Below are positions 17,998 through 20,630 of a stretch of DNA of 34,585 nucleotides, in pieces. The stretch comes from Candidatus Altiarchaeota archaeon (lineage in GTDB: Archaea; Altiarchaeota; Altiarchaeia; IMC4; QMZM01), in the NCBI GenBank assembly GCA_016931955.1, contig JAFGDV010000037.1, forward strand, positions 1 through 34,585, given 5' to 3'. A model generated the notes under the pieces. That model was not told the DNA's origin, did no database searches, and saw only the letters and a list, made by a program, of their open reading frames with translations. The translations under genes and the position numbers were made by a program. The first letter of the stretch is position 1. Every line of letters begins with the position of its first letter.

Positions 17998-19032
17998 ATG
18001 GATTATGGTTATGTGAACCCCTGGATTGAGGACATAGAATCCTACATCCCCGGGCAGACAATCGAAGGATGCATCAAGCTGGCGTCCAACGAAAATAGCT
18101 ATGGTCCCTCCCCGAGGGTTCTGAAGGCGATAGCACAGGCCAGTTCTTCACTGAATAGGTATCCCTACAAGGATGATGCTGTTCGAGAAAAAACAGCTCA
18201 ATACTGTAATGTAAAGAGAGATAACATCATACTAGGGAACGGCTCAGACGAGTTGATCGACTTAGTGGTGAAGACATTCAAGGGAGCGATTCTCTCCGTT
18301 TATCCGACATTCGCCACCTACCGGATCTCTTCGCAGATATCCAACAGGGAATACATTGAAGTTAGGCTTAATCCTGATCTATCCTTCCCCCTAGAAGAAT
18401 TCATCTCGAATTCAAGGAAGGCTGACATACTCTTTGTCTGTTCCCCCAACAACCCGACTGGGATGGTTCTCCCTGAGAAGGGGCTCAGGGAAATACTGGA
18501 CGAGGGGAAGATAACAGTTATTGATGAAGCCTACTTTGAATTCTATGGTAAGACAGCTGTTAAACTGCTTGATGACTATGATAACCTCATCGTTTTAAGG
18601 ACATTCGCCAAGGCGTTTGCTTTAGCCGGCCTGAGGATGGGTTACATAGTCGCCAATCCCACAATCACAGGGTTGCTCTACAAGGTGAAGCCACCCTTTA
18701 ATGTGAACTCCCTCGCCCAGGAGGCTGCCCTAGCAGCCCTAGATGACACCCAATACATGAAGTCAACAGTCAACAAGATCGTCGAAGACAGGGAATTTAT
18801 CTATAATAAAATCTCTGAGATGTTCAAGGCCTTCAAATCCCACGCCAACTTCATCCTAGTAGATACTACCCCCCTAAGTTCGGATGAATTTTATGGGAGG
18901 CTTCTGGAGAAAAAAATCATAGTCCGCAACCTCAAAAGATTTACGGGCTTCAGGGGAGAATACTGTAGGATAAGCATAGGCACGACAGGAGAAAACAGAA
19001 AACTTATCAAAGCAGTAAGCGAACTCTGCTAG
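17998..19032 (+). CDS. hisC: Histidinol-phosphate aminotransferase
   Basis: IKLASNENSYG, GNGSDELI, CSPNNPTG, IDEAYFEF, LRTFAKAFALAGLRMGY (PLP lysine). Confidence 0.92.
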   Translation: MDYGYVNPWIEDIESYIPGQTIEGCIKLASNENSYGPSPRVLKAIAQASSSLNRYPYKDDAVREKTAQYCNVKRDNIILGNGSDELIDLVVKTFKGAILSVYPTFATYRISSQISNREYIEVRLNPDLSFPLEEFISNSRKADILFVCSPNNPTGMVLPEKGLREILDEGKITVIDEAYFEFYGKTAVKLLDDYDNLIVLRTFAKAFALAGLRMGYIVANPTITGLLYKVKPPFNVNSLAQEAALAALDDTQYMKSTVNKIVEDREFIYNKISEMFKAFKSHANFILVDTTPLSSDEFYGRLLEKKIIVRNLKRFTGFRGEYCRISIGTTGENRKLIKAVSELC

Positions 19033-19041
19033 TATATATCC
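19030..19041 (+). promoter_or_regulatory. Putative TATA box of tRNA-Pro (TAGTATATATCC)
   Basis: Overlaps the hisC stop codon and lies 30-40 nt upstream of the mature tRNA 5' end. Confidence 0.55.
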
Positions 19042-19071
19042 CCCAGTTACCATATCCTTTATCGTCGATTT

Positions 19072-19146
19072 GGGACCGTAGGGTAGCTTGGCTTATCCTT
19101 CCAGCTTTGGGAGCTGGTGACCCGAGTTCGAATCTCGGCGGTCCCA
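19072..19146 (+). tRNA. tRNA-Pro (anticodon TGG), intronless, CCA not encoded
   Basis: Acceptor stem GGGACCG/CGGTCCC, anticodon arm CCAGC-TT-TGG-GA-GCTGG, T arm CCGAG-TTCGAAT-CTCGG. Confidence 0.97.
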
Positions 19147-19592
19147 CTACCACCTTTTTCTTAGAAAGAAAAACGTGGACGAAAAAGAAAGGAATCTGCC
19201 GAAGGCAGATTCTTAGGGTTGATAAGGGCATACCTGCCCTTATGTGTCGAATCTCGGCGGTCCCATAGCCCTTTTCTCTAGGAAAGAAAAGTGCTATCAT
19301 CAGCAAGATGCTAAGCATCTTGTCTGAGTTGAGGCCAACAGACCTCATCATCCCCAAAGAAACGGAAATTCGCTTCGAGAATTCTTAGGGTTGATAAGGG
19401 CATTTGATGCCCTTATTTCGGGATCTCAGCGGTCCCATTGCCTTCAGCCTTTCTTTTCCGTGAGCGCAAAATCTCCGATTTTGGCGCCCAAAACTGCTAC
19501 AGCAGTTTGACGGAAAACGTGGACGAAAAAGAAAGGAATCTGCCGAAGGCAGATTCTTAGGGTTGATAAGGGCACAAGGTGCCCTTATGTTG
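19128..19592 (+). repeat. tRNA-linked array: tRNA 3'-end copies separating hairpin-rich cassettes
   Basis: TCGAATCTCGGCGGTCCCA at 19128-19146 and 19247-19265, with a degenerate copy at ~19417-19437. A 61-nt exact direct repeat (19170-19230 = 19514-19574). Three copies of ATTCTTAGGGTTGATAAGGGCA-loop-TGCCCTTAT. Confidence 0.9.
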
Positions 19593-20630
19593 TTATCTAT
19601 TTGTCTCCTCGTTGTTTGTTATCTTTTGGATGTTCAGTCCCATGTAGACTGCGCATAGGAGCCCTATTATTAGGGGCAGCAGGAAGAGGCAGAATCTGTT
19701 TATTATTGTTGCTGCGGCTGCGGTGGCTTCAAGCATCTTTGGCTGTGCTATCAGTATGTATAATGCGGTGCTTGAACTCTCCCACACGCCTAATGCCCCG
19801 GGCATGAGCGGGAGAAAAGAGATGCCTGCGACAGTAGTTTCAACGATTAAAACAGTTGAGAACTCTATGGAGACACCAAGGGCAGTGAATATGAGGTATG
19901 TTCGCAGCATTCTCAGCCCCCAGACTATTAGCGACATTATGGTTCCAAAGAACAGGATGTAGTTATCTAACATATGCAATCTGACGGCTTCGTTGAATTT
20001 TCCAGACATCTGGTCGAACTCGGGCAGCACCTCTGTTATGTGTTTTTTCAGGAAATGGATTCCTGAAAGCAGGGTGGCGATCCTTTTCATGCTCTTCAGG
20101 AAGATGTCCTTCCTCGTAACCAGTGTTATTACGACAGCGAACAGAAGCAGCAATATCATGGCAATCGTGGCGAGGAAGAGGGCGAATAGCATCGAAACAC
20201 CCTTCACATATGTGAGGTATATGGCTATTCCGCTGAGTAGGAACATTGGGACGATCTCGAGGAAAAGATCCACGAGGACGCTTGATGCTGCAGTGGTTAA
20301 TGGTAGGTTATCTGTCTTCGAGATTATGTAGGCCTTAACTGGTTCACCCCCAGCAAGACCTATTGGTGTTATGCCATTCATGAAGTATCCTACGAATGTT
20401 GCTGGCAGCAGATTGCGCATTGAGACGTTCGAGTGCCTTAGGACGAGGCGCCATTTAAATGAGGATACGATATTAGAGGTTAACTGTATTGTCAGGATTA
20501 ATAAAAGGTAACCTGGAGAGATCTTTTTTAACTCCTCCAGAAACTGGTCGAAATCAACAAGGTATAGTGTCAGAAACACCAGCAGCAAGCCGATAAGTGA
20601 GAGGAGAATTGCTTTACGTCGCATTTTCAC
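19593..20630 (-). CDS. Lysylphosphatidylglycerol synthase TM / UPF0104 flippase-like membrane protein
   Basis: Multi-TM protein with KWRLVL, GYFMNGITPIGLAGGEPVKAY and PLMPGALGVWE; adjacent to a glycosyltransferase. Confidence 0.88.
   Translation of the reverse strand: MKMRRKAILLSLIGLLLVFLTLYLVDFDQFLEELKKISPGYLLLILTIQLTSNIVSSFKWRLVLRHSNVSMRNLLPATFVGYFMNGITPIGLAGGEPVKAYIISKTDNLPLTTAASSVLVDLFLEIVPMFLLSGIAIYLTYVKGVSMLFALFLATIAMILLLLFAVVITLVTRKDIFLKSMKRIATLLSGIHFLKKHITEVLPEFDQMSGKFNEAVRLHMLDNYILFFGTIMSLIVWGLRMLRTYLIFTALGVSIEFSTVLIVETTVAGISFLPLMPGALGVWESSSTALYILIAQPKMLEATAAAATIINRFCLFLLPLIIGLLCAVYMGLNIQKITNNEETNR

Follow-up and report, generated by a model that had tools for sequence, protein, structure and literature searches.

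Hairpin cassettes bounded by copies of neighbouring gene ends at tRNA-Pro and other loci of a Candidatus Altiarchaeota archaeon

The stretch of DNA analysed here (hereafter the window; 34,585 nt, contig C9 of a Candidatus Altiarchaeota genome) holds a tRNA-Pro(TGG) gene that is followed by three small cassettes, each closed by the same end hairpin and delimited by copies of the tRNA's own 3' end. Cassettes of this family, which measure ~75-170 nt and carry no genes, are found in near-identical form behind other tRNA genes of the genome, and their end hairpin is spread through the order to which the window belongs. In our judgement the chances are about even that they are non-autonomous and insert at gene ends through a recombination in which the gene end is duplicated (a target-restoring, Campbell-like process), the arrays being reshaped later. 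The original prediction, made from the letters of the window, had read the array as serial, polarised integration of tiny structured elements at a tRNA att site. Taken as a whole, that interpretation is partly supported. The window sequence belongs to a short-read MAG of 1.55 Mb in 46 contigs that is 92% complete.

Layout of the tRNA-Pro locus

tRNA-Pro, recognised by both ARAGORN and Rfam, is the sole tRNA gene of the window, and its last 19 nt recur downstream in one exact copy and one degenerate copy (Table 1). Both copies had been named in the original prediction, as had the three cassettes that they delimit, which measured 99, 153 and 155 nt. With up to 3 mismatches allowed, the tail 19-mer gave 2 matches in the window and none in 100 shuffles. 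All three cassettes are non-coding, and the ORF list holds no ORF of 60 aa on their + strand. An identical 61-nt repeat, mentioned in the original prediction, is shared by cassettes 1 and 3. By comparison, cassettes 1 and 2 are only 62% identical in their shared region, although tail copy 1, which lies between them, matches the tRNA at 19/19 positions.

Table 1. Coordinates of the features at the tRNA-Pro locus, numbered from the first letter of the window.
Feature	Position	Strand	Details
tRNA-Pro(TGG) gene	19072-19146/7	+	ARAGORN; Rfam RF00005, 55.7 bits
Duplicated tail	19128-19146	+	last 19 nt of tRNA-Pro, T-loop to discriminator
Cassette 1	19147-19246	+	fold -39 kcal/mol, z -6.1; repeats; D pattern
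Cassette 1, hairpin A (T-run/A-run)	19150-19178	+	
Cassette 1, hairpin C	19190-19214	+	
Cassette 1, end hairpin D	19222-19243	+	base motif from 19216
Tail copy 1	19247-19265	+	19/19 identity to last 19 nt of tRNA-Pro
Cassette 2	19266-19418	+	fold z -4.6
Cassette 2, hairpin A	19266-19296	+	
Cassette 2, two B hairpins	19300-19327, 19330-19347	+	
Cassette 2, weak C-like segment		+	
Cassette 2, end hairpin D	19394-19416	+	
Tail copy 2	19419-19437	+	15/19 identity; differences mostly in T-loop part
Cassette 3	19438-19588	+	fold z -6.6
Cassette 3, hairpins	19464-19487, 19491-19508	+	
Cassette 3, hairpin C	19534-19558	+	
Cassette 3, end hairpin D	19566-19588	+	
61-nt exact repeat	19170-19230 (cassette 1), 19514-19574 (cassette 3)	+	
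22-nt end motif with hairpin	19216-19243, 19388-19416, 19560-19588	+	
Possible third tail copy, strongly decayed	19589-19608	+	10/20 match, counted by eye; uncertain
Convergent ORF	19593-20630	-	345 aa

The cassettes are chains of hairpins, with folding z-scores of -4.6 to -7.3 over both strands and none of 200 shuffles folding as well. The particular hairpins listed in the original prediction are present in the computed folds. We distinguish five modules under labels of our own. Module A, a T-run/A-run hairpin, begins 0-10 nt downstream of the gene (at tRNAs, downstream of the discriminator base), modules B and C are variable hairpins, and module D is the end hairpin, conserved at its base (GGGTTGATAAGGG...CCCTTAT) and variable, with compensating changes, at its top. 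Module E is an alternative end hairpin found behind tRNA-Val, Met, Arg and Phe. Each of the three cassettes of the window terminates in D. The shared 22-nt end motif with its 9-10 bp hairpin, already noticed in the original prediction, occurs three times in the window against 0 expected. A scan of 18500-20200 with Rfam (E up to 1) returned the tRNA plus three weak chance matches, and no family for the cassettes.

Part of the array could be compared with independently assembled sequence. A Logan contig of 110 nt matches 19203-19312 without difference and spans the end of cassette 1, tail copy 1 and the start of cassette 2. None of the DNA-run contigs listed spans the full array, so that they are uninformative on copy-number variation, and the RNA run of the same study (n=1) has no contig on the stretch and is uninformative on expression. 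At the far end of the array, the possible third tail copy overlaps the last codons of the convergent gene, whose 345-aa ORF comes within 5 nt of the foot of D in cassette 3.

Spread of the cassettes in the genome and the order

ARAGORN recognised 14 tRNA genes in the genome when introns were excluded and 21 when they were allowed. Copies of the gene's own tail (last 18 nt, up to 4 mismatches) are present within 1.5 kb downstream of 7 of the 14 (Pro, Val-TAC, Met, Arg-TCG, Gln, Gly-TCC and Phe-GAA), amounting to 9 copies; upstream, the same criteria gave no copy at any of the 14. An eighth case is tRNA-Glu, whose tail copy lies across a contig break (C46/C44). Every tail copy matches the tRNA that stands before it, which means that it derives from the target and not from the element. 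The cassettes of this genome are always oriented like the upstream tRNA.

The search for dispersed copies that the original prediction had called for was positive. Modules of the window cassettes recur with 85-100% identity behind tRNA-Gly, Glu, Phe, Val, Ile, Arg and Gln and at 4 sites where no tRNA was detected; for contrast, the adjacent hisC gene is just 66-69% identical to that of a relative in the same genus. A cassette behind tRNA-Gly(GCC) on contig C14 matches the B part of cassette 2 at 92% over 80 nt. Parts of cassette 3 have counterparts on contigs C23 (94% identity over 78 nt), C4 and C27 (97-98% over 58-59 nt). Outside the window's contig the end motif occurs four more times, in three cases no more than ~550 nt from a contig end, and it is found in relatives as well. 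A contig from another sample of the same study is identical to window positions 19460-19590 and then continues into a copy of the tRNA-Glu tail in place of the tRNA-Pro flank, from which it follows that the same cassette is present at two different tRNA loci. Non-coding, bounded by tail copies and with near-identical relatives at other loci, the cassettes agree with the tiny non-autonomous units of the original prediction.

Related arrangements were seen at a gene start and within tRNA genes. On contig C18 (8869-8990) the first 29 nt of a protein gene, comprising the start codon and 9 codons, are duplicated before an A-C cassette that is followed by the whole gene; by reading, the codons that differ between the two copies of this gene head comprise 3 synonymous changes and a single conservative substitution. 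Predicted introns of 72-115 nt with A-type modules occur in tRNA-Leu (C8:44124-44324), tRNA-Trp (C10:27976-28153), tRNA-Asn (C31:19172-19318) and tRNA-His (C38:23749-23911). The tRNA-Trp intron appears to hold what we take to be the usual box C/D guide.

A 13-mer from the foot of D is present in 25 of 41 related genomes. In a sample of 61 genomes of the phylum it was found in 26, all of them in the window's order (26 of the 49 sampled there), and in none of the 12 genomes from two other families outside the order; the reversed pattern matches 3 places. We read 44 D units from the genome itself and nine relatives. Behind 19 of these comes a copy of the upstream tRNA's tail, extending from the T-loop to the discriminator or a few bases past it, and behind 2 comes a whole tRNA whose first 21-22 nt recur upstream of the cassette. 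Protein-gene or other repeats bracket another 2, and 17 are without a repeat.

In the relatives, tRNA 5' ends and protein-gene ends (17-87 nt) likewise occur as copies flanking the cassettes. An example is relative G010, where direct repeats of 17-58 nt bracket 14 of the 17 D loci tested; most start 0-3 nt after D and two start 28-29 nt after it. Most of these repeats consist of the final codons of an ORF, in which the stop codon may or may not be included. A tRNA head is duplicated in G022 (L106, G022:C185:1900-3300), where six tandem units of 132-135 nt precede a complete tRNA-Lys gene, and each unit combines the AT-rich region from upstream with the tRNA-Lys(TTT) head (first 30 nt) and an A module. 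A genome of the order that is assembled as a single contig has tail copies at up to 3 of its 22 tRNAs and head copies at 4 of the 22, which indicates that the architecture is independent of fragmented assemblies. At locus L116 (G024:C31:11500-12136), ARAGORN predicts a tRNA-Ser(TGA) with a 239-nt 'intron' that encloses a whole cassette ending in D; either a lengthy duplication of the tail or a genuine, cassette-derived intron could explain it.

The tRNA-Pro site itself differs among relatives. In same-genus genome G001 the order hisC, tRNA-Pro, convergent membrane gene is kept, and ~75 nt without any cassette take the place of the array. Behind tRNA-Pro(TGG), G010 has at least 2 units of 75 nt, in each of which a short D cassette is joined to a tail copy; in G011 there is a lone A hairpin, and G029, G006 and G008 have no cassette. 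In the archaeal relative L012 (HisC 56% identical), no cassette was seen in the 270 nt from hisC to the contig end. The array thus does not appear to be an assembly artefact and is neither invariant nor lacking in dispersed copies, any of which would have spoken against the original prediction, and its site is empty in a member of the same genus.

Junctions, strand bias and possible origins

The right junction of the cassettes is fixed, with the duplicated segment starting 0-3 nt past the foot of D in nearly all cases, and the left junction is loose, the duplicated length varying between 13 and 87 nt. Where tRNA tails are copied, substitutions and indels are frequent in the T-loop part and the last 13 nt are mostly intact. 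Such loose and variable junctions are unlike conservative site-specific recombination. The original prediction had the cassettes integrate at an att site in the tRNA 3' end, of the kind used by tyrosine integrases, and this part is not supported in that form: the tail copies do not behave like a fixed site of such an enzyme, as the T-loop part is often altered and the duplicated segment can also be a tRNA 5' end or the end of a protein gene. Conservative att recombination by a tyrosine integrase is not favoured.

Array-final cassettes are usually without a tail copy behind them, as at tRNA-Trp, Val(GAC), Ile and Gly(GCC) and probably at the third cassette of the window, and a genome-wide search found no distant partners for repeat-less D units. 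Together, these results indicate that cassettes can arrive or be inherited without duplication. At tRNA-Gln and at locus L125 one cassette stands with one tail copy. The predicted decay of the copies with distance holds at tRNA-Pro (19/19, then 15/19) but is not a general rule: polarity is inconsistent among arrays, and at tRNA-Met the near copy has 4/18 mismatches and the far copy none.

Comparison of 53 distinct D units showed a conserved foot and a variable top with compensating changes, and hairpin C shows compensating changes at stem positions 5-8. G.U pairs in the D units number 19 on the sense strand versus 1 on the antisense strand, counts that are not independent because the units are related to one another. 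The sense strand is the more stable in 24 units, the less stable in 5 and equal in 24 (Wilcoxon p 2e-4). The G.U bias and the better folding of the sense strand point clearly to D as a hairpin that acts single-stranded, on the sense strand (RNA or ssDNA), and not as a double-stranded palindrome. Co-transcription of the cassettes with the tRNA, raised in the original prediction, would fit only their common orientation and the sense-strand G.U bias.

Several other roles were considered and set aside. D directly adjoins complete tRNA genes (G000 Gly-TCC; G024 Gly, Thr) and the starts of some ORFs, as a promoter might, but the distance from TTGATAAG to the junction varies with the hairpin top, and the G.U bias suggests a single-stranded role. 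A tRNA-like fold or minihelix of D plus tail copy is disfavoured by the lack of the 5' strands and by the sequence ahead of D, which does not change with the acceptor stem. No bulge-helix-bulge pairing was seen by eye at the junctions, which argues against a T-loop intron. Module B is a plain long hairpin without Rfam match, not a hammerhead ribozyme, and the bases after D are not uniform at protein-gene loci, as an IS91-like GTTC target would demand.

The two copies of protein-gene tails were compared codon by codon at 14 loci with an upstream open frame of at least 30 codons, setting the gene's own tail against the displaced copy. The differing codons were synonymous in 19 cases and non-synonymous in 9, and 3 of the 9 come from the poorly aligned locus L144. 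If the displaced copy decayed freely and the gene itself accepted synonymous changes only, about 36-46% of the differences would be expected to be synonymous; the observed excess has P 0.0006-0.017 under rough assumptions, with a rough null model and few loci, mainly L122, L141 and L148. The simplest reading would be that each copy evolved as a functional gene end in a lineage of its own and that the two were joined recently. The synonymous bias favours the entry of a unit made up of 'gene end plus cassette', from a different lineage or locus, over duplication in place.

Enzymes that might act on the cassettes were searched for in the 92% complete genome. The tyrosine recombinase domain PF00589 has a single match, on contig C38 beside tRNA-Cys, and none in the window, in agreement with the original prediction. 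There are no matches to the Y1 (HUH) transposase PF01797 or to Cas1 PF01867, and no reverse transcriptase was found. No IntI or attI stands next to the array, and paired RYYYAAC/GTTRRRY core sites are absent from the foot of D, where ATAAGGG pairs with CCCTTAT. The integron- or CRISPR-like growth that had been suggested thus finds neither core sites of the integron type nor Cas1, HUH transposase or reverse transcriptase to go with it.

The C38 match belongs to a classical integrated element of ~9.6 kb (C38:51049-60750), in which tRNA-Cys(GCA) is followed by the gene of a 403-aa tyrosine recombinase. A precise 15-nt copy of the tRNA-Cys tail, starting in the T-loop, lies 9.6 kb downstream at C38:60736, and behind it the resident A-B-C cassette of tRNA-Cys continues. 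The ends of this element carry neither an A nor a D module. A direct repeat over the tRNA 3' part exists at the cassettes too, often with T-loop mismatches or indels and of variable length, versus the precise 15 nt at tRNA-Cys.

On the reading that we put at about even, a cassette would be copied in directly behind a gene, more rarely in front, through a recombination in which ~13-90 nt at the end (or start) of the target gene are duplicated. The entering unit would be 'gene end plus cassette' and would recombine within the gene end, and the displaced gene-end copy would be left 0-3 nt after hairpin D, the junction being fixed at the foot of D. With the gene end duplicated on entry, the gene would stay whole. 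Donor units may come from other loci or lineages, and the tRNA-Pro locus would record at least two such events on top of a first cassette. Arrays would afterwards have been reshaped by slippage and by exchange of modules between loci. As the cassettes encode nothing, the enzymes would have to act in trans. Several observations count against insertion: the sole tyrosine recombinase is tied to the tRNA-Cys element, in a genome without detected Cas1, HUH Y1 or reverse transcriptase; a double-stranded circle of 75-170 bp would be a physically awkward intermediate; a tail copy is usually lacking behind the last cassette of an array; some tandem arrays consist of identical units, as plain slippage would produce (G010 Pro, L115, L135 and the six units at G022 tRNA-Lys); and the polarity of arrays is inconsistent. 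A bolder reading, which we hold only tentatively and would not expect to prevail, is that the cassettes are a new class of archaeal mobile element without a recombinase of its own. It would travel with a spare end of the target gene, enter through it and so swap tRNA tails and heads and the last codons of proteins between lineages, a host enzyme making the fixed junction at single-stranded D (RNA or ssDNA).

The cassettes might instead have arisen by local slippage or template switching, with 'tRNA tail plus cassette' duplicated in place between breakpoints in the T-loop and at the foot of D and with gene conversion afterwards homogenising or exchanging cassettes of different loci, requiring no mobile intermediate and no dedicated enzyme. 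This possibility, which we regard as doubtful, would account for the identical-unit arrays, for arrays here that mostly have one tail copy fewer than cassettes and none behind the last, for the imprecise T-loop junction and for the lack of any recombinase found; the D end ...TTATGTT, common among the units, and the T-loop start GTT would suit such breakpoints. It sits badly with the perfect tail copy 1 between two cassettes of 62% identity, with the single-cassette loci that have one tail copy (tRNA-Gln, L125), with the synonymous bias of the differences between protein tails and with the presence of one cassette at different tRNA loci. Much less probable still are scars of kilobase-sized tyrosine-integrase elements that entered the tRNA gene and later lost their cargo. 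The same genome does have such an element at tRNA-Cys, with a tail copy that also starts in the T-loop; its ends, however, carry neither A nor D, whereas the cassette ends are conserved over an order, and no gene is enclosed by the D units read (44 units; 17 loci). The duplicated segments moreover include tRNA 5' ends and protein-gene ends of many lengths, and the junctions are imprecise.

A third alternative, compatible with insertion and in our view unlikely, is that the cassettes are host-useful, co-transcribed spacer RNAs, the archaeal counterparts of the E. coli tRNA-linked repeats (TLRs), in which the tail copy would mimic a 3' processing signal and D would be protective or protein-binding. 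The constant orientation like that of the upstream gene, the G.U pairs on the sense strand and the order-wide base of D beneath a varying, compensating top would all suit an RNA, and PMC8144298 describes three E. coli TLRs as processed sRNAs and discusses the repeated 3' end as a processing signal. Close relatives nevertheless have empty sites, tail copy 2 is down to 15/19 identity, a tRNA-like fold would need 5' strands that are absent from the tail copy, the sequence before D is independent of the acceptor stem, and no Rfam family matches.

Relation to known systems

The available text of PMC8144298, citing Egan and Landy 1978 and Rudd 1999, describes 22 TLR units in E. coli at 10 loci, one to five per locus, each ending in 18-19 bp of the 3' end of the upstream tRNA or rRNA; their function is there said to be mostly not known. 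As far as that text goes, TLRs and the present cassettes are alike in being short non-coding units directly behind tRNA genes (in TLRs, also rRNA genes), here in the same orientation, and in having the 3' end of the upstream gene as the unit end, which here amounts to 19/19 and 15/19 positions in the window and to 7/14 tRNA genes. TLRs are bacterial, whereas the archaeal cassettes are mosaics of hairpin modules with an order-wide end hairpin. Unlike TLRs, the cassettes are also found away from tRNA genes, in tRNA introns, at the 5' ends of tRNA and protein genes and, in relatives, behind the 3' ends of protein genes. As the taxa are far apart, homology with the enterobacterial TLRs is unlikely.

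Archaeal integrative elements that target tRNA genes include those of the SSV and pTN3 types, and there is a T-loop class of att sites. With tyrosine-integrase elements the cassettes share the direct repeat from T-loop to 3' end, the intact gene, the displaced partial copy and possible stacking. They differ in having no integrase or cargo, a size of 75-170 nt, an imprecise T-loop junction, duplications of 13-87 nt and the same cassette ends at many different targets. Integron cassettes form arrays whose units end in an imperfect attC hairpin with a conserved base and a variable top, which acts single-stranded and with a strand bias. The present cassettes resemble them in forming arrays, in the end hairpin with conserved base and variable top and in the strand bias, but have no IntI, attI or GTTRRRY/RYYYAAC pair and no genes, and they duplicate the ends of target genes. 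REP/BIME mosaics are modular palindromic intergenic units mobilised by RAYT transposases. The cassettes are likewise modular palindromic units behind genes, with many near-identical copies per genome; this genome, however, has no Y1/HUH transposase gene, and the end of the neighbouring gene is duplicated, which to our knowledge is not the case for REPs. Insertion of the CRISPR or casposon type is not matched, as there is no Cas1 and the duplication is of variable length (13-87 nt) and not fixed. Partial tRNA genes in archaea are described in PMC9897764 as products of integrated elements of 9-23 kb.

A literature search, with most subscription journals outside its coverage, found no paper on such small hairpin cassettes in archaea. 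New in this work are an end hairpin that is shared across the order and also serves at tRNA heads and protein-gene ends, the biases towards the sense strand and towards synonymous differences, and the comparison with a genuine integrase event that the genome itself offers. Should the cassettes prove mobile, they would be far smaller than any integrating element described for archaea, would carry no enzyme and would point to an undescribed mode of DNA insertion at gene ends. The E. coli TLRs have been unexplained since 1978, and a second, much richer system could make their origin testable.

The cassettes also have practical consequences. Repeated cassettes evidently break short-read assemblies at tRNA loci: in this genome 8 of the 21 tRNA genes lie within 400 nt of a contig end (C3, C14, C22, C24 twice, C30, C45 and C46), the remaining tRNA-Pro genes are missing from the assembly, and 21 tRNA genes are all that was found in a genome 92% complete. 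Cassettes further create partial tRNA genes that annotation tools may misread, and in the relatives they rewrite the last codons of proteins.
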